Assembly: GCA_046708665.1 (NCBI GenBank)
Contig: JBKKDE010000044.1
Span: forward strand, 1-24,532
From: Candidatus Zixiibacteriota bacterium
GTDB lineage: Bacteria > Zixibacteria > MSB-5A5 > WJJR01
Direction: 5' to 3'
Length of the DNA: 24,532 nucleotides
In this document: in pieces, positions 16,528 to 24,532 of the stretch
Position numbering within the stretch: position 1 is the first letter of the stretch
Layout of the letters: every line of letters begins with the position of its first letter
The notes under the pieces: generated by a model
Told to the model about the DNA's origin: nothing
The model's input: only the letters and a program-made list of their open reading frames with translations
The model's database searches: none
Made by a program: the position numbers and the translations under genes

Positions 16528-18858
16528 ATGAACACCGTATCGAGCGCCGATACCCGTATCCGTTGGATCCCTGCTTCCATCGCACGCCACCCCGCACTAC
16601 TTGCCGCCGCCTGCATTTGCGTCGGAGTGTTCCTCGGCGATGCCATCGACATGAGTTCTGGGGCAATACTCGTTGCAACCGTGGTGCTGGGTATCGTCGG
16701 CCTTGTGGCTTCCCAATCCGTGATTCTCACGACACGGGTGGTTGGGGTGATTGCCGTCTGTGGGGCAATCGTCGCACTCGGGGCATGGCGCATTACCGTA
16801 ACGAACTCCGGTCGACCATCGCCATCACTGACCGAGCTGATCGCGTCAGGACGCCAAGTCAACATATTTGCACGCGTCGATGGTGTCCCTTATCAGAAGT
16901 CGAGCGGCTGGCGGCTTCCTCTTGAGTTACTGTCAGTCAAGAGCCCAAGCGGTAATCAGTCAATCGCTGGCCGCGTGCTCTTGACCTCGATAGCATCCCT
17001 GCACGGACTACAATTCGGCGATTACATACGCTTCGACGGTCGCGTTTTCGCGGCTTCGATCCAACGCAACCTCGGCGGGTTCGACTACGCCGAGTACCTG
17101 CACCGCCAAGGGTTCGACGCCACAGTCCGTCCGCAGTCGCCATTGTTAAAATGGCCACAGGACATGCACTGGTCGCTGTACAACATTGCCGACCCCGTCA
17201 GGCAATGGATTCGCGAAACATTTGCAAGAAGTCTGGACGATGACCCGCAGGCGCTACTCGTCGGGCTTCTACTTGGAGACACCGACCGGCTCCCCAAGCC
17301 GGTGTATGACGCGTTTCGAGAATCGGGTACGTCGCACCTGCTTGCGGTTTCGGGAGCCAATGTGTGGCTCGTTGTGGGGATGATTCTCCTGCCGATGTAT
17401 GCGTTTTCAGTTCCACGCTGGCCACGAACGATTATCGCGCTGATCGTCATCGTCTTCTTCAGTTTTCTCACACGCAATGAGCCCTCCGTGGTGAGAGCCT
17501 CTCTCATGGTTGGGCTGATTTTGGCGGGACGACTGATGTGGCGGCCGGTTGCTCCGTTAAACGCCGTGGGCGCGGCCGCGTTAATTATTCTGCTGCTGTC
17601 ACCGGCTCAACTCTTCCGACCCGGCTTTCAGTTGTCATTTGCTGCAGTGATTGGAATCATCATAGCTGTGAGACGTGTTGAGCCGAAGCTGCGGGGGATC
17701 TGGCGCACGCGCTTGGTCTACACGGTCGTTTTGTTCCTTGTCGCGTCGTTGGCTGCAACTGTTGCGACAGCCCCGATCTCAGCTTGGCATTTTGGAACAG
17801 TTCCTGTCGCGGGGCTTGTCTCAAATCTGCTAATGGTTCCTCTGGCCGGCATGACCGCGCACCTCGGCCTGTTGCTCTTGCCCCTCCAGGCTGCAACTTC
17901 GACAGGTTCGAGAGCACTTGCCGTGGCCATCGAATACTTGCTGCGGTTGTCCACGCACATCGCCCAACTGTTCGCTGATATGTCGTGGGCTACGCTTTCC
18001 TGGCCATCGCCCTCACTGTTGATTCTCGGTCACTTCGTATTGGTGATTTGCTTGATTCTCAACTGGCGTCATCGGTACAGTTGGTTCAGGCCTTTCGTCT
18101 ACTATGTCTGCATCTCGCTCACGGTGTTCGCAGCGGCTCGACTTAGCAACCCAACTTCGCCCGTCGCATCAATATCGCTCCTGGACACAGGTCGGCAACG
18201 AGTAGCAGTGCTCTCAACCAGCGCCGGGATGGCGGCTGGGACAATTGACGATCCGGGATTGGACGACGAGATCGACCAGTGGATAGTTCAGCCATTCCTG
18301 CGACACAAAACGGGTGAGCCCAAATTGGATGCTTGGACATCATGGCGACGGCTAGCCGATTCTCCCACGTTTCAGACGTACGGTTCCGATATCCGGCCAC
18401 AAATATGGAAGCGGTTCTACACTCACGAAGATCTCGACACTCTTGGCCGACCTCGAGTTTGGGCCGATTTATGGCCGACGGATTCAGCCGACATTCTTAT
18501 GATTCGTGATATTCCGACGATGCCGCTGCCGTTACTCCTCGCTGAGACGGGTACCACTCTACGCTCGCCAACCATAATTATCCCCTCGCAGGCAAAAGTC
18601 GGCTGGGTCCGTGAAGTGCTTGATAGATTACGTCCTACGAGCGTAGTCCTGTATGGTCGGTCGCGATTCGGAGAGGACCCAGAAGAGACACTCGCATTCT
18701 GGCGGCTACGCTTTCCTGAGGTTGAGTTCTATTCGTCCGCTGAATACGGCGGGATCACTCTCGATATCTTGCCGGGCCAGGCGACTCTTACCCACACTGT
18801 CTCAAGCCCGCCGAAATCCTATCGAATAAAGGTCTCGCACAATTCCCCGATAAAGTGA
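16528..18858 (+). CDS. comEC: ComEC/Rec2 DNA uptake channel with degenerate C-terminal metallo-beta-lactamase-like domain
   Basis: N-terminal TMs plus an OB-like region (LQFGDYIRFDG, GGFDYAEYL). Competence-domain motifs GTSHLLAVSGANV, PSVVRASLM, GFQLSFAAV. Confidence 0.9.
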   Translation: MNTVSSADTRIRWIPASIARHPALLAAACICVGVFLGDAIDMSSGAILVATVVLGIVGLVASQSVILTTRVVGVIAVCGAIVALGAWRITVTNSGRPSPSLTELIASGRQVNIFARVDGVPYQKSSGWRLPLELLSVKSPSGNQSIAGRVLLTSIASLHGLQFGDYIRFDGRVFAASIQRNLGGFDYAEYLHRQGFDATVRPQSPLLKWPQDMHWSLYNIADPVRQWIRETFARSLDDDPQALLVGLLLGDTDRLPKPVYDAFRESGTSHLLAVSGANVWLVVGMILLPMYAFSVPRWPRTIIALIVIVFFSFLTRNEPSVVRASLMVGLILAGRLMWRPVAPLNAVGAAALIILLLSPAQLFRPGFQLSFAAVIGIIIAVRRVEPKLRGIWRTRLVYTVVLFLVASLAATVATAPISAWHFGTVPVAGLVSNLLMVPLAGMTAHLGLLLLPLQAATSTGSRALAVAIEYLLRLSTHIAQLFADMSWATLSWPSPSLLILGHFVLVICLILNWRHRYSWFRPFVYYVCISLTVFAAARLSNPTSPVASISLLDTGRQRVAVLSTSAGMAAGTIDDPGLDDEIDQWIVQPFLRHKTGEPKLDAWTSWRRLADSPTFQTYGSDIRPQIWKRFYTHEDLDTLGRPRVWADLWPTDSADILMIRDIPTMPLPLLLAETGTTLRSPTIIIPSQAKVGWVREVLDRLRPTSVVLYGRSRFGEDPEETLAFWRLRFPEVEFYSSAEYGGITLDILPGQATLTHTVSSPPKSYRIKVSHNSPIK

Positions 18859-18911
18859 AAGGCCCCCGGAAGATAAGGCGGGTCAGGGAATCTCTTGGGC
18901 AGGAGAGCCGC

Positions 18912-20087
18912 ATGAGCTTTGCTGGGAATCTAAAAACGGTCGTTTTTGGCGATGTGCTGCAATTGATCTCGACCGGTCGCCGCACCGGGGCGCTGGTTCT
19001 CAATCGTCCCCATCGCGGCAAGAAAATTTACTTTCGAACGGGTGACATCATCGCTGCCTCGTCGGAGCCATCGACTGATGAGGAACGTCTGGGGCAAGTA
19101 TTGCTCCGCAAAGGGATGATCAGTGTCGAGGATCTGGAAAAGGCATTGAAGCGTCAAAAATCGACCGGACGACGCCTGGGTCAGATACTTGTCGAGCTCG
19201 GTACAATGAGCAAGGAAAGCATCACCGATGCACTGCGGCTTCAGGTCGAAGAGGTCGTCTACGGTGTATTTGGATGGAACGACGGCGACTTCCAGTTCGC
19301 AGAAGGGGAGAAGCCTGAGGCCTCCCAAATCTTGGTAGAACTGAACACGCTGTCTGTCATGATGGAAGGTGCCCGGCGCTTCGATGAGTACTCAGGAATC
19401 GCAAGCACTCTGCCAAACGAAGAGACAGTGCTGCGTTTTGTGCCTTCCCCGCATCTCAAGGATCCGGAGATTGTTCTGTCCGCCGAGGATATCGATGTCC
19501 TTTCTGGCGTCAATGGCCAGCGTTCCGTTGCTGAAGTCGTCGCCACGTCCTCGTATGGCGAGTACGCTGCCTCAAAGTCTCTTCATAAGCTCCTGACATC
19601 CCATCTCATCGAGCCCTGTCCGGACGTTGCCGTTGCGGTAAAACAGCGCGCCGATGAGGATGAACTGATCGCCTTCATTTTCAAGCTTCACGCCCATGCC
19701 TTGCTGACCATTCATGCCACGCTCAAAGAATACCTCGGACGCGCTGGAGATCGCCTCTACTTCCACATTCCCGCTCTATGCTACGATGACCCGTGGGATT
19801 TGGCTGCTCCGTTGATCGATGCCGACGGTGCGCGCTCGCAAGAGCTGTTTCGTGAACGCGTCTCGCGGATTCCGGGCCCAATCCGTCTCCACCGCTCAGT
19901 CGCTACGGCCCATGCCCTTGTTCATGAAGGGATGCGGACGGTCCGCGACACCCTGGGCGACACCGTCGCTCACAATGTGGCTGAGTCAACCAAACGTGAA
20001 CTCGCTGTGCTTCTGGCACAGAAGCGCGCGCTGGGAGACAAATACGACGTTCACAACGAATTCTTCGCAATTCTCAGGGGGAGATAG
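18912..20087 (+). CDS. DUF4388/PATAN-like protein with internal MshEN motif and wHTH-like segment
   Basis: AGGAG RBS and ATG 18912. DUF4388-type MSFAGNLKTVVFGDVLQLIS..RRTGAL and FGWNDGDFQF...MMEGARRFDE flank a tandem MshEN motif. LSGVNGQRSVAEV is wHTH-like. Confidence 0.8.
   Translation: MSFAGNLKTVVFGDVLQLISTGRRTGALVLNRPHRGKKIYFRTGDIIAASSEPSTDEERLGQVLLRKGMISVEDLEKALKRQKSTGRRLGQILVELGTMSKESITDALRLQVEEVVYGVFGWNDGDFQFAEGEKPEASQILVELNTLSVMMEGARRFDEYSGIASTLPNEETVLRFVPSPHLKDPEIVLSAEDIDVLSGVNGQRSVAEVVATSSYGEYAASKSLHKLLTSHLIEPCPDVAVAVKQRADEDELIAFIFKLHAHALLTIHATLKEYLGRAGDRLYFHIPALCYDDPWDLAAPLIDADGARSQELFRERVSRIPGPIRLHRSVATAHALVHEGMRTVRDTLGDTVAHNVAESTKRELAVLLAQKRALGDKYDVHNEFFAILRGR
19086..19244 (+). 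repeat. Tandem MshEN c-di-GMP-binding motif (2 x 24 aa, 5-aa linker)
   Basis: RLGQVLLRKGMISVEDLEKALKRQ-KSTGR-RLGQILVELGTMSKESITDALRLQ matches RLGxxLxxxGxxxxxxLxxxLxxQ twice with the canonical spacing. Confidence 0.88.
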
Positions 20088-20480: not shown

Positions 20481-20714
20481 TGTACTCGGTCTGCATCCGT
20501 GCCGGGATTATTCCTCGTCCCGGCCATGGGATTTCTCCCATACCGACAATTCCAATCTCGGCCTCCGAAGACGGTTCCACGTGTGACCGTGCTGTGAGTC
20601 GGTGTTAAGACAACCGCCCTGTAGGTCGATATTAATAATTGTTCCAGGCACATAACCTCGCAGGGCGCTCAGCGCGGGGCATCATGTCGGACTGCACCTA
20701 AAATGAGGGCGATC

Positions 20715-21602
20715 ATGCTTAGCGTGGCGCAATTGGACGAACGCATCGAGAAGTGTCTGGCGATACTCGCCGACAACCCGCATTCACAAGTCTTCGCGGC
20801 ACTCGCGGATACATACCGCAAGCGTGGTGAGTTCGGACGCGCGTTCGCCGTTTGCAAGAGTGGGCTCAAGCACCATCCCGATTATGCACCCGCGCACATC
20901 GTGATGGCCAAGCTGTATCTGCATCAGGGCATGTTCCAAGACGCACTGAACTCGCTCAAGCATGCTGAGGCGCAGGATGGCGTTACACGAGCATCGGAAT
21001 TCCTGGAGGCTGAGACTCTCATCGGCGTGCACGACTTTGATGCCGCGCACGCGCTAATCGAAAGGCTCCGCGCCACCGATCGGAACAACCCAGACGTGCT
21101 TGAATTGCAAGCAAAACTCAAGGCGTCGCGGGTGGTCTCGCCGAAGCCAACAAGCGTCGACGACAGAGCACCAGGAGCGACAGATATCGAGCGAGCCACT
21201 GTGCCGGAGCCGGCGGACGCCGTAGAGTACGTTGACTGGACGATGTGGGCACTCGAGATAGCAAAGCTGCCGCATGTTCAGAAGGCCTTTGCAGTGGAAC
21301 TCAGCGACAAAGGAACAACTCCGTTCTCAGTGCTCGCAGAAGCTGGTCCTGGGCACGATGCCGCGGATACGGTCAGCATTTGCGTCGCGCTCTTTGCGTC
21401 ACTCGATTCCCAATGCCGGGCCAAAGGCATCGGCATCGTTGAAGAACTGCGCATTGAGCGTCCGGACGGCGAAATCTGGTGCCATCGTTCCAGCGGACGC
21501 CTCGTAGGATTTTCAGGTGGACACGGTCTCTCATACGGCGCGCTTCGCCAGAAGGCATTGGACGGTGCCGCGCGGGTCAACAGTTACGAAATGAGTCAGT
21601 GA
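20715..21602 (+). CDS. TPR protein with C-terminal degenerate Roadblock/LC7-like domain
   Basis: TPR-type helices FAALADTYRKRGEFGRAFAVCKSGLKHHPDYAPAHIVMAKLY. The C-terminal EIAKLPHVQKAFAV...GIVEELRIERPDGEIW...SYGALR follows the Roadblock secondary-structure pattern. ATG 20715 (GAGG RBS) or 20703. Confidence 0.7.
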   Translation: MLSVAQLDERIEKCLAILADNPHSQVFAALADTYRKRGEFGRAFAVCKSGLKHHPDYAPAHIVMAKLYLHQGMFQDALNSLKHAEAQDGVTRASEFLEAETLIGVHDFDAAHALIERLRATDRNNPDVLELQAKLKASRVVSPKPTSVDDRAPGATDIERATVPEPADAVEYVDWTMWALEIAKLPHVQKAFAVELSDKGTTPFSVLAEAGPGHDAADTVSICVALFASLDSQCRAKGIGIVEELRIERPDGEIWCHRSSGRLVGFSGGHGLSYGALRQKALDGAARVNSYEMSQ

Positions 21603-21609
21603 GGACGCC

Positions 21610-22566
21610 ATGACAGGGACGATTTCGCGAAAGACATCGTATACGCCAATTGTTCTGCGCCTGGCGATTTACTCCGCGCTGTTGGTCTTGGTACCTCTCG
21701 TGCTGTACCCGAGGGGGTTCGGATTCCCTGCGTTGGATCTCAATCCCGCGATCGGACTCTTGGAATGGGCCTTCTACGTTGCCGTGCTCAGTCTGTCCGC
21801 GTCACGGCTCCCCTTCTCAACCCGTGTAGTCGCCGCAGGCTTCACCGTGCTCTTCCGCTTCACGATCGGGGCTATTGCTGGTTGGCTTGTCGGATTTGCA
21901 CATGGCGTGCCACAGTCGGAGACTGTTGTTGGTATGATGTGGTCGTATCCTATGGCCTTGATCCCCCACGTGCTCTTTGCCGCGGTGATTACGAGCCCCT
22001 TATGGGAAAACCTGATGTCGACACAACCGTCGCGTCAGTCGCCCCGTGCAACGGGCCGTACCAAATTCGTGTCTCCGGCGCTGTCGCCATCGACAGTGCG
22101 CACCAATTCTCACAACGCCACGGCATCGCGTGTGGCCTCCGTTGCTGGCGCACTGAATCAAGAGCCGTCATTCGATGATGCAGTGTCTTATATCGGTGAG
22201 TACACCGGCGTTCGTTTGTGCTGGATCGTGGACCGCGATGGTCTTCCCATCGCTGTGTGGCAACGCCAAATGTATACCGGAGATGCCGACTTCTGGGCTC
22301 CCGTTTCAGTCGAAATGATCGATTTCCATAGACAGCGTCTGTCGACCGGGGGTGACGTTTGCCAACCCGATCGGCTCGAAGTGCGCACCAATCAAGGACG
22401 GCTGGTGGTGGAATCGGTTCGTGACGTGTGGCTCGGCGTGCTAACAGATCCCGACGCTGATGAGTTGATCAGCGTACGAATCACGCGCGCACGGGAAATG
22501 ATTGCGAAACATTTGCAAGCGGAGGGCGGACTGACCATAGCCGCCGGGGAGGTTCAATATGTTTAA
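21610..22566 (+). CDS. Membrane protein (about 4 TM) fused to a C-terminal Roadblock/LC7 domain
   Basis: Four hydrophobic segments in the first ~135 aa, then an S/T/P/R linker. From ~22168: GVRLCWIVDRDGLPIA...RLEVRTNQGRLVV...WLGVLTD, which is Roadblock-like. Confidence 0.75.
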   Translation: MTGTISRKTSYTPIVLRLAIYSALLVLVPLVLYPRGFGFPALDLNPAIGLLEWAFYVAVLSLSASRLPFSTRVVAAGFTVLFRFTIGAIAGWLVGFAHGVPQSETVVGMMWSYPMALIPHVLFAAVITSPLWENLMSTQPSRQSPRATGRTKFVSPALSPSTVRTNSHNATASRVASVAGALNQEPSFDDAVSYIGEYTGVRLCWIVDRDGLPIAVWQRQMYTGDADFWAPVSVEMIDFHRQRLSTGGDVCQPDRLEVRTNQGRLVVESVRDVWLGVLTDPDADELISVRITRAREMIAKHLQAEGGLTIAAGEVQYV

Positions 22567-22897
22567 GGAACTGGCTCAACTGAACAGGACCACAGGCGTG
22601 ACAGGCAGCATGCTTGTCGGACACGACGGAATCGTGATTGCAGCGGATCTCGACGAGAAAACTGACGACGACACTCTGGGAGCGTTGGCGTCTTCGATCG
22701 CGGCAACCGTGCGTCGGTCGATGACGGAACTCGGCGCTCATGAATTCGCGCAGATTACCGTCGAAGCGGACAATCAGAAAATCTTCCTGACCGATGCAGG
22801 TATCGGAACGCTGGTCGTCACGACCGAGCCCCGTGTAAACATCGGCCTCGTCCGTCTTGAGATTCGCAACACCATTGGCGCGTTCGCGCGCGCTTGA
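22559..22897 (+). CDS. Stand-alone Roadblock/LC7 protein (MglB/MglC-like)
   Basis: GVTGSMLVGHDGIVIA, LGALASSI, QITVEADNQKIFL, NIGLVRL. GGAGG RBS; 8-nt overlap with the upstream gene. Confidence 0.9.
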   Translation: MFKELAQLNRTTGVTGSMLVGHDGIVIAADLDEKTDDDTLGALASSIAATVRRSMTELGAHEFAQITVEADNQKIFLTDAGIGTLVVTTEPRVNIGLVRLEIRNTIGAFARA

Positions 22898-22937
22898 CGC
22901 AGAAGGGTTCACGAACCACACGGAGAATGAAGGAGCT

Positions 22938-23915
22938 ATGGTTTCGATTAACTACGCCTTCCGCGAAATAAGCTGCAAGATCGTCTACTATGGTCCCGGC
23001 CTGTCCGGAAAGACGACGAACCTGCAGTACGTGCACGACCGCGTTCCCGCGAAGTCGCGCGGCGACCTCATCAGTCTCGCGACCGAGGCCGACCGTACTC
23101 TGTATTTCGACTTTCTGCCGATCCACGTAGGAGACATCGGGGGATTCTCGACCAAGTTCCAGCTCTACACAGTCCCTGGTCAGGTGTTCTACAACGCGAC
23201 GCGCAAGCTGGTTTTGCGCGGCGTGGATGGGATCGTCTTCGTTGCCGATTCACAGTTGGCCAAGATGGATGAAAATATTGAGTCGCTCGCGAACATGTAT
23301 GAAAATCTACGCGAAAACGACATCGATGTGCAAGCCATGCCGTTGGTGTTGCAGTACAACAAACGCGATCTGCCCGACATCGCATCAATTGAAGAACTCG
23401 AGAAGACGATCAATCCCGACGGCCGTCCCATTGTGGAGGCGAGTGCCGTCAAAGGCGTTGGTGTTTTCGATACGATGAAGCGAATTACCAAGCTCGTACT
23501 GGAAGACACAAAACGCAAAACATCCGGGCAACAGCCGTCGACTCCGACCGCGACCAAACCGACGACTCCGTCGGTGCCGATCGACGGCATGCTGACGTCA
23601 TCGGGCCCGGTGTCCGAGTTGCGGCAGTCAACAGCCGCACGCGCGGAGGACGGATGGAACACGGACCGCCATGGCGCGGGAGCCGCTGCGGTCGCGGTCG
23701 TTGAACCGGCAGCCGCATCAAAATCCACACGTGGGCCCATTGGCGTGTCAGCAGAAAGTTCACCGAGTTCAGAAGCCAGGATAGCAGGAACGGCTCACTC
23801 GACAACGCGCAACGATAATGCGGCGTCGGTTGTAACGGCCCAAAGAAGTACACGAATTCGTCGTCGTCAACGATCACTGTTCGATCGCCTCTTTGGCTGG
23901 CTGTTCGGACGTTAG
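22938..23915 (+). CDS. mglA: MglA-family small Ras-like GTPase with long C-terminal extension
   Basis: INYAFREISCKIVYYGPGLSGKTTNL (G1), DRTLYFDFLP (intrinsic Arg finger), TVPGQVFY (catalytic Gln), NKRD (G4). AAGGAG RBS and ATG 22938. 325 aa versus ~195 aa for M. xanthus MglA. Confidence 0.93.
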   Translation: MVSINYAFREISCKIVYYGPGLSGKTTNLQYVHDRVPAKSRGDLISLATEADRTLYFDFLPIHVGDIGGFSTKFQLYTVPGQVFYNATRKLVLRGVDGIVFVADSQLAKMDENIESLANMYENLRENDIDVQAMPLVLQYNKRDLPDIASIEELEKTINPDGRPIVEASAVKGVGVFDTMKRITKLVLEDTKRKTSGQQPSTPTATKPTTPSVPIDGMLTSSGPVSELRQSTAARAEDGWNTDRHGAGAAAVAVVEPAAASKSTRGPIGVSAESSPSSEARIAGTAHSTTRNDNAASVVTAQRSTRIRRRQRSLFDRLFGWLFGR

Positions 23916-23927
23916 AGGAGGTCTTGG

Positions 23928-24404
23928 ATGTCGTCAGGAGCTTATGTTTTATATGAAGATCAGATTGACCGCATCAACACAGCGCTCTTGCGCCTGTTGA
24001 AAAAGGCGGAAGCAAAGTGTGCCATCCTGGCGGATAAGGACGGGCACTTGATCACGCGCCAGGGATTCACCCAGTCACTGGATACAACGGCGTTGGCAGC
24101 GTTGCTCGCAGGCAGCTTTGCCTCCACCCGCGAGATCGCGCGGTTGGTTGGTGAGCCGGAATTCTCGGTCCTTTTTCACCAGGGAGTCCGCGATCACATT
24201 CACATCTGCCTGGTTGGAGAGCGTTGCATCCTGGCCATCGTGTTCGATGACCGAACGACGATCGGCATGGTGCGACTCTATGCCAAGGAGACCGCTGATC
24301 GACTGAAGGAGCTAACAACACCGGCGGCCGACGGCCGGGCTGACCTGTCGGACGATTTCTCGACCAGCGCCGGGGAGAAGATCGACAGCATGTTTAAGGA
24401 GTAG
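23928..24404 (+). CDS. mglB: MglB (Roadblock-family GAP for MglA)
   Basis: Closely resembles M. xanthus MglB from memory: LYEDQIDRIN, AILADKDGHLI, LDTTALAALLAG, LFHQG, IVFDDRTTIGMVRL, C-terminal IDSMFKE. AGGAGG RBS. Confidence 0.92.
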   Translation: MSSGAYVLYEDQIDRINTALLRLLKKAEAKCAILADKDGHLITRQGFTQSLDTTALAALLAGSFASTREIARLVGEPEFSVLFHQGVRDHIHICLVGERCILAIVFDDRTTIGMVRLYAKETADRLKELTTPAADGRADLSDDFSTSAGEKIDSMFKE

Positions 24405-24532
24405 GGCTCCGGGTGGTTCGGGTAGAGGCGCGAAGCTGGAATCGTACACATAATCGGCATGCGGTCATGACTCAAAAGACCAGGGATTGTAAATAACGTG
24501 TCGCAGGAACTAGGACACATGCTGGTGCAGGC

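Follow-up and report, generated by a model that had tools for sequence, protein, structure and literature searches.

An MglA GTPase with a long disordered tail and a conserved, MinD-like terminal peptide that probably tethers it to the membrane

MglA, a GTPase, serves as the bacterial model of a Ras-like spatial switch. Model MglAs reach the cell pole via partner proteins and, to our knowledge, mechanistic work in Myxococcus, Thermus, and Bdellovibrio all treats MglA as a small, soluble protein, located entirely by such partners. K-Ras and Rho proteins have a hypervariable region and a polybasic or lipid anchor; we propose a tether that would follow the same logic for a bacterial MglA. The gene is in contig JBKKDE010000044.1 of Candidatus Zixiibacteriota. 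The stretch analysed (the window) comprises 24,532 nucleotides, and the contig ends at position 24532. Read from its ATG start, mglA occupies positions 22938..23915 (+ strand, as do all window features below) and encodes 325 amino acids, followed by a TAG stop codon. The protein appears to combine a known GTPase family with a known kind of membrane anchor, and this combination appears to be undescribed. We put at roughly 70% the probability that this MglA is held, permanently or semi-permanently, at the inner membrane on its cytoplasmic face.

An intrinsic arginine finger beside the G2 threonine, and a G3 motif with the sequence TVPGQ, are hallmarks of group-1 MglA proteins (Wuichet & Sogaard-Andersen, PMC4316618). 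All of the hallmarks given in that survey are found in residues 1–193 of the protein (22938..23516), which form the G-domain. The P-loop, GPGLSGKT at residues 19–26 (G1, GxxxxGK[ST]), is invariant among 113 homologues. The arginine finger, D52-R53-T54, adjoins the G2 threonine and is also invariant. The G3 motif is T78-V-P-G-Q82, in place of DxxGQ, and an NKRD motif is present. In phmmer searches, M. xanthus MglA (PDB entries 5ymx, 6h17, and 6hjh; E ~3e-75 to 4e-75) matches residues 3–193 over their whole length, with ~65% identity. The T. thermophilus protein (3t12; E 1e-69) covers the same residues. AlphaFold2 (AF2), with the 113-sequence alignment as input, models the G-domain confidently, most blocks having a predicted local distance difference test score (pLDDT) of 85–96. 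To judge by its motifs, the G-domain is that of a catalytically intact group-1 MglA. A Shine-Dalgarno sequence, AAGGAG, is found 2 nucleotides before the ATG (22930..22935), and the homologous ATG is the start in all 30 phylum orthologues first extracted. A single MglA was detected in the source assembly, which is 81% complete.

The resemblance to model MglAs stops at the end of the G-domain. The M. xanthus and T. thermophilus chains stop where the alignment stops; these proteins are soluble, 195–197 residues long, and end after the last helix. The source protein has 132 extra residues. An earlier reading of this DNA, made from sequence only, had claimed that M. xanthus MglA lacks such a tail and the alignment agrees; M. 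xanthus-type MglAs are 192–197 residues in length. The same sequence-only reading described a low-complexity tail of ~130 residues. Its G-domain boundary (...LVLEDTKRKTSG, residues 186–197) and its composition both stand. However, only ~100 residues are variable, as the last 30 are conserved.

The variable part, residues 194–295 (102 residues; 23517..23822), was delimited by composition, conservation, and AF2. It is rich in Ala, Ser, Thr, Gly, and Pro, which make up 62% of the linker and 28% of the G-domain, and poor in large hydrophobic residues (13%, compared to 37% in the G-domain). Charges are even, at +9 and -9. AF2 assigns residues 214–301 a pLDDT below 50 and no secondary structure. In the 113-homologue alignment, the frequency of the majority residue is 0.84 for the G-domain, 0.26 for the linker, and 0.52–0.66 for the end module. 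Hence, as the sequence-only reading had anticipated, the terminal module is kept while the linker diverges. Ratios of non-synonymous to synonymous substitution rates (dN/dS), determined against three same-genus orthologues, are 0.03–0.04 for the G-domain, ~0.3 for the linker, and 0.04–0.14 for the last 30 residues, though these are rough values because dS is saturated. By these measures, the linker is hypervariable and the end module is under strong purifying selection. Guanine plus cytosine content at codon position 3 is 0.58 in the tail and 0.70 in the G-domain; the lower tail value fits its Ala/Pro/Gly-rich composition. Residues 194–325 contain no cysteine. Two small islands recur within the linker of same-genus orthologues but not across the family: a Trp-containing segment, EDGWNTDRHGAG, at residues ~235–247 (window positions 23640–23680), and an SSGPVS sequence.

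The conserved end module spans ~30 residues (296–325), and the last 30 residues have a net charge of +7. Three parts can be distinguished. The pre-basic motif, A-S-V-V-T-A-Q-R-S-T-R (residues 296–306; 23823..23855), was defined from the 113-homologue alignment, in which the consensus is V-x-x-A-Q-[KR]-S-[LT]-R. Val298 is kept in 83 of the 113 sequences, Gln302 in 87, Ser304 in 109, and Arg/Lys306 in 111. The core of the polybasic patch, IRRRQR (residues 307–312; 23856..23873), follows, as indicated by alignment and charge. The protein then ends with an aromatic and hydrophobic peptide, SLFDRLFGWLFGR (residues 313–325; 23874..23912), predicted from AF2, hydrophobic moment, and Wimley-White energy to be a membrane-inserting helix. 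Phe, Trp, and Leu provide 7 of its 13 residues and the consensus is S-[LF]-[FW]-x-R-L-F-G-W-L-F-G-R. Hydrophobic positions are well kept among the 113 homologues: Leu/Phe314 in 102, Phe/Trp315 in 105, Leu318 and Phe319 in 96 each, Trp321 in 97, and Leu322 in 77. Eight arginines are found within the last 23 residues. The complete ending, ...RIRRRQRSLFDRLFGWLFGR, is exactly that given in the sequence-only reading, which had singled out positions 23874–23912, corresponding to residues 313–325. Note that Ser304 (109/113) and Ser313 (90/113) are in or beside the polybasic patch, a placement reminiscent of MARCKS and K-Ras, in which phosphorylation controls an electrostatic switch.

The module is specific to MglA. 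A profile search with the last 36 residues, against 1.84 billion representative proteins, returned only MglA tails or fragments and two repeat proteins; the end module was found in no other protein family in this search. Within the source genome, a filter for a polybasic-plus-hydrophobic C-terminus was passed by mglA alone, out of 5441 open reading frames (ORFs) of at least 100 codons, with thresholds chosen post hoc, after the target was known.

We examined conservation in a sample of 101 genomes from the phylum (Zixibacteria by NCBI labels), extracting the MglA gene from every scoring genome. This gave 98 complete MglA ORFs, one per genome, of 311–511 residues (median 360). All are long-tailed; none ends right after the G-domain. 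A 10-mer with at least four Lys or Arg residues is found inside the last 30 residues in 95 of the 98 proteins. The most interface-seeking 10-mer of the tail is no more than 6 residues from the C-terminus in 94 of the 98, and this placement recurs in 120 of 121 database homologues, the lone exception having an obviously aberrant ending. The best 120 database homologues (297–435 residues) nearly all have a basic patch and then a Phe/Trp/Leu-rich terminus, joined to the G-domain by linkers that cannot be aligned. The terminal peptide itself varies in the phylum, with endings such as RSLFDRLFGWLFGR, KKRGFFKRLFGIK, KKKKFFLFRWFSRDND, and GFFLWRFFKQLFKR, while the basic-then-aromatic chemistry is constant. 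The description of the terminus as MinD-like, in the sequence-only reading, is borne out best by the commonest ending in the phylum, ...KKRGFFKRLFGIK, which nearly equals the KKGFLKRLFGG of E. coli MinD. Most phylum members have Lys, rather than Arg, in the basic patch. Compared to this usual, Lys-rich and MinD-like form, the source ending is Arg-rich, longer, and ~3 kcal/mol more interface-seeking.

As controls, we used E. coli MinD and FtsA, read from NC_000913, which end ...EEEKKGFLKRLFGG and ...GSWIKRLNSWLRKEF, respectively. The best terminal segment of each protein was compared on the Wimley-White interfacial scale. The energy obtained is -4.87 kcal/mol for the source MglA, -2.78 kcal/mol for FtsA, and -1.56 kcal/mol for MinD. 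Median values are -4.3 kcal/mol for basic/aromatic-ended MglAs and -0.16 kcal/mol for the C-termini of tail-less MglAs. The membrane-targeting sequence of MinD is an amphipathic, lipid-binding helix; a lone copy of the E. coli version is too weak without dimerisation, whereas the longer B. subtilis version works singly (PMC8155659). Since the MglA peptide is longer and more aromatic than that of E. coli MinD, monomeric membrane binding is plausible. By this analogy, the peptide, preceded by a net charge of +7, could hold an MglA monomer on an anionic membrane.

AF2 places a single helix in the tail, at residues 315–323, with a pLDDT of ~56–61. The top hydrophobic moment for any 11-mer of the protein, 0.687, belongs to residues 312–322. 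On a helical wheel, L314, F315, L318, F319, W321, L322, and F323 fall within an arc of ~200 degrees; S313, D316, R317, G320, and G324 occupy the opposite side. No 19-residue Kyte-Doolittle window of 1.6 or above exists anywhere in the protein. Hence, since the tail has neither cysteine nor a membrane-spanning hydrophobic window, the anchor, if it is one, would be peripheral and non-lipidated. CAAX prenylation is ruled out because the tail has no cysteine, and any likeness to prenylated Ras and Rho is functional only. A sorting signal of the PEP-CTERM or LPXTG type is similarly ruled out; the protein has no signal peptide, and its hydrophobic part follows the basic patch instead of preceding it.

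We turn now to MglA tails in other phyla. Scanning with each species represented by one genome gave 80 group-1 MglA loci. These were combined with the 30 phylum loci first extracted to build a quick maximum-likelihood tree of the G-domain. Basic/aromatic-ended proteins of the source type form one clade, with a support value of 98 in the Shimodaira-Hasegawa-like approximate likelihood ratio test (SH-aLRT). To account for the basic/aromatic ending, this tree, which fixes neither the root nor the direction of change, calls for three or more independent changes of state. The nearest named relatives of the source MglA are from Candidatus Zixiibacteriota. Some NCBI labels of metagenome-assembled genomes ('uncultured Ignavibacteria', 'Ignavibacterium sp.', and 'Terriglobales bacterium') clash with the GTDB grouping; two checked members of the clade with such labels (L045 and L047) are genomes of the source's own GTDB class, whose contig numbers and coordinates their records share. 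The G-domain of one further locus (L040) is identical to that of a phylum genome (G009).

Tail-less MglAs, of 192–197 residues, occur in Myxococcota, Desulfuromonadia, Bdellovibrionota, Gemmatimonadota, and many Acidobacteriota. In Planctomycetota, where 92 of 151 sampled genomes have MglA, 22 of 24 complete best-hit ORFs have a strongly hydrophobic 17-mer in the tail (Kyte-Doolittle 2.2–3.3). This segment is mostly at the extreme C-terminus, after basic residues, and would, by hydropathy only, be a tail anchor. One planctomycete MglA ends KKKGFLGRLFRIFKK instead. MglA occurs in 49 of 61 Fibrobacterota genomes; complete ORFs were extracted from 22 loci, and every one of them is long. In one group, they end with a basic patch and GF[LI]xK[FL]F. 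It therefore appears, from these sequences, that unrelated MglA lineages put either a MinD-like peptide or a transmembrane segment after a disordered tail. This recurrence is the strongest indirect argument that the job of the tail would be membrane tethering, and the replacement of the peptide with a transmembrane segment, in Planctomycetota, independently points the same way.

Other long MglAs have further features. A few from Planctomycetota (L122, L126, and L145) continue for 60–90 residues past the hydrophobic segment, and these residues would lie outside the cytoplasm. In several planctomycete genomes, MglA paralogues number as many as 9, and their open frames reach 1445 codons, though open frames overestimate gene length in high-GC DNA. 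Fibrobacter-type MglAs, of 315–331 residues, have a strongly conserved ending, ...DD[DE]IELRPYVPKKK, acidic and then basic. To judge from its sequence, it probably serves as a linear motif for binding a protein and not as a membrane anchor. Acidobacteriota include a well-supported clade of MglA paralogues, 384–767 residues long, with an extension ending in a beta-like motif, ...L-x-L-x-I/L-D-I/L.... The extension lacks both the basic/aromatic peptide and a transmembrane segment; it may be a domain that folds at the C-terminus.

The genes upstream of mglA are in the same orientation and tightly spaced. At the head of the cluster is a PATAN (DUF4388) protein (18855..20087; PF14332 at 1.6e-32); linkage of PATAN and MglA has been noted before (PMC4316618). 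Further along are a TPR protein (20703..21602; TPR_19 at 8e-14), a candidate MglA effector or adaptor, and a membrane protein (21610..22566) with at least two Kyte-Doolittle transmembrane windows. The latter has a weak, C-terminal, Roadblock-like match (PF03259, sub-threshold at E 0.0018) and is a possible membrane-anchored regulator. A free Roadblock/LC7 protein of 112 residues (22559..22897; PF03259 at 3.6e-15) then precedes mglA, and the upstream cluster also encodes a small protein with four hydrophobic segments. Downstream, 12 nucleotides past the mglA stop codon and with its own Shine-Dalgarno sequence, is mglB (23928..24404), encoding a Roadblock/LC7 GTPase-activating protein (PF03259 at 3.7e-12); the match to the NCBIfam MglB model, NF052242, is 2.8e-23 and under the curated cut-off. 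In a complete genome of the same genus (G020), the same cluster continues from mglB directly to pilB (with an MshEN domain), pilT, pilC, and a gene for a PilS-like PAS histidine kinase (L120:11402-17309). Like the Myxococcus and Thermus proteins, with which it shares the P-loop, arginine finger, TVPGQ, and NKRD sequences, the source MglA thus has an adjoining MglB Roadblock gene and is linked to type IV pilus genes. Unlike model MglA loci, the gene order is Roadblock-mglA-mglB, with further Roadblock, TPR, and PATAN genes. The MglA regulators and the likely output machine would themselves be in, or at, the inner membrane, which fits a membrane-tethered switch.

From comparative evidence, we infer that the protein binds membrane, how strongly it would do so, and what would follow for polarity. 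The linker, of ~100 disordered residues, would serve as a leash, with a contour length of up to ~35 nm and a likely mean span below 10 nm. The Arg-rich patch would dock electrostatically on anionic lipid headgroups, while the terminal Phe/Trp/Leu-rich peptide would fold as a short helix and insert at the bilayer interface. The G-domain could then explore a shell of several nanometres beneath the membrane. In this way, MglA would diffuse in two dimensions, not through the cytosol, yet MglB, the remaining Roadblock proteins, the TPR and PATAN proteins, and the motor of the type IV pilus would all stay within its reach. A bolder version, which we regard as improbable, is that the whole MglA cycle is two-dimensional on the inner membrane. 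Constitutively tethered GTPase, membrane-embedded Roadblock regulators, and PATAN/TPR adaptors would constitute a self-organising, Min-like or Ragulator-Rag-like, patterning system. It would place the adjacent type IV pilus motor with no need of a polar landmark of the RomR type, and the near-invariant Ser304 and Ser313 would provide an electrostatic switch for release, in the manner of MARCKS or K-Ras.

Several observations weigh against a membrane anchor. The AF2 helix is only moderately confident and holds two glycines. Periodicity of the terminal 14-mer is not significantly above that of shuffles with the same composition (P=0.24), and shuffles match or beat the observed moment in a median fraction of 0.36 across 91 distinct termini from the phylum. 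Of the amphipathic helix put forward in the sequence-only reading, the one-sided arc and high moment are observed, and the shuffle test lends no support to a periodicity beyond composition. Note that the best 11-mer, residues 312–322, selected post hoc, gives P=0.033. In the controls, the FtsA sequence gives ~0.03 and that of E. coli MinD gives P=0.31. Since the experimentally proven MinD sequence fails too, and the peptides are short and hydrophobic-rich, the test is without discriminating power. The case for an anchor is thus made by the AF2 helix together with conservation, position, and composition; helical periodicity has no part in it. Another way for the peptide to bind could be as a basic/aromatic motif of the MARCKS kind, in part unstructured. 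Furthermore, the transmembrane assignments in Planctomycetota are based on hydropathy alone. Finally, the Fibrobacter-type tails end in a conserved sequence, DDEIELRPYVPKKK, that is not amphipathic, so MglA tails can carry other terminal peptides with other jobs, and a ~30-residue module, confined to MglA and with a near-invariant Ser304, exceeds the needs of a generic lipid anchor. The latter hints at a partner or regulatory site. The last 30 residues might then be a short linear motif for a protein, with the TPR, Roadblock, PilB/PilT, or MreB proteins as candidates. This is the main alternative to a membrane anchor, though we think it unlikely. The layout of GTPase, disordered linker, and conserved C-terminal peptide is that of FtsZ, the pre-basic part of the module is non-hydrophobic, the Fibrobacter-type ending is clearly not a membrane motif, and TPR domains frequently bind terminal peptides. 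A complex prediction for the tail peptide (residues 290–325) with the G-domain, TPR protein, and MglB scored 0.00, which weighs neither way on binding. Against a partner motif, the terminal peptide drifts within the phylum in a way that keeps chemistry, not a fixed interface; its commonest form is near-identical to the lipid-binding sequence of MinD; and relatives in Planctomycetota swap in a transmembrane segment.

The same relatives bear on two further explanations. If the terminal helix folded back on the G-domain in one nucleotide state, for instance into the pocket for the MglB helix, the tail could be autoregulatory or an Arf-like, nucleotide-gated switch. A helix-binding, allosteric pocket is known in MglA; in M. 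xanthus, it reportedly receives the C-terminal helix of MglB. Terminal helices are used as switches by Arf and Ran. However, AF2 gives low-to-moderate confidence for the tail end, and none for the linker, with no docked conformation apparent. In addition, a variable linker of 100–300 residues would couple poorly to nucleotide state, and folding back is impossible in the transmembrane-anchored proteins. We therefore consider this very unlikely. Alternatively, the Arg-rich stretch might bind another polyanion, such as nucleoid DNA, RNA, or polyphosphate, with the hydrophobic end driving self-association or condensates. Eight arginines in the last 23 residues do resemble an arginine-rich nucleic acid-binding sequence, and a long, low-complexity linker suits condensates. 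Yet the preference for Lys in most of the phylum, and the aromatic terminus directly after, are the signature of interfacial membrane binding, and the transmembrane-anchored relatives also point to the membrane; we give this explanation even less weight. The chance that the tail is an artefact of frameshift, read-through, or mis-assembly is close to nil. The architecture is in frame in all 98 phylum proteins and in 120 of the 121 database homologues, which rules this out, purifying selection acts on the last 30 codons, and mglB begins promptly after the stop codon with its own ribosome binding sequence. A sequencing frameshift, named in the sequence-only reading as something that might explain the tail, is thereby dismissed.

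We know of no MglA studied so far with the basic/aromatic-tailed design. Full-text literature searches, with most subscription journals outside their coverage, turned up no description of an MglA that is tailed, membrane-binding, or tail-anchored. C-terminal extensions of MglA go unmentioned in the main survey of Ras-like GTPases in prokaryotes (PMC4316618). If membrane tethering is correct, whole phyla would run this switch in the manner of eukaryotic Ras, Rho, and Rab, with the G-domain on a leash that has a basic and hydrophobic anchor. The phyla concerned would be Zixibacteria, many Planctomycetota (with transmembrane anchors), and part of Fibrobacterota. Models of polarity for such organisms would shift from three-dimensional diffusion and capture to two-dimensional diffusion. 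The proteins would also provide a simple, natural case of convergent GTPase membrane anchoring.

How does the proposed anchor compare with known systems? As in MinD and FtsA, the site is at the extreme C-terminus, outside the fold, and is basic and then Phe/Leu-rich. However, the MinD host is a ParA/MinD ATPase, whereas MglA is a Ras-like TRAFAC GTPase; this is analogy, not homology. Furthermore, membrane binding by E. coli MinD is gated by ATP-dependent dimerisation, while the MglA peptide is on a 100-residue leash instead of directly on the fold. No MinD scored above the NCBIfam curated cut-off in the source assembly or in three near-complete relatives. FtsA was not found in the source assembly (81% complete); the relatives do encode it, with the ending ...LTGKLSNVLSQLI. 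Hence, in these genomes, a MinD-like peptide is found on MglA without a canonical Min system alongside. FtsZ has the three-part layout too: a GTPase domain, a linker that is hypervariable, and, at the end, a conserved peptide connecting the GTPase to the membrane. In that case, the peptide usually binds the adaptors FtsA and ZipA, rather than lipid, and the fold is tubulin-like and polymerising. Mycoplasma FtsZ does carry its own amphipathic helix (bioRxiv 10.1101/2023.08.29.555414). Among prokaryotic small GTPases of the Ras superfamily, direct membrane association by an amphipathic helix has been proposed for the Arf-like proteins of Asgard archaea (PMC11914678). There, the helix is N-terminal, beside the fold, and nucleotide-gated, and the proteins are of the Arf, not the MglA, family. 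The layout also resembles that of Ras and Rho proteins, such as K-Ras4B: a small GTPase domain, a variable and unstructured linker, a polybasic stretch, and a C-terminal hydrophobic anchor. The MglA anchor would be a peptide, rather than a lipid, with no CAAX box or cysteine, and its linker has about five times the length. This does not imply common descent of the tails; the likeness would be in how a small GTPase is held at a membrane.

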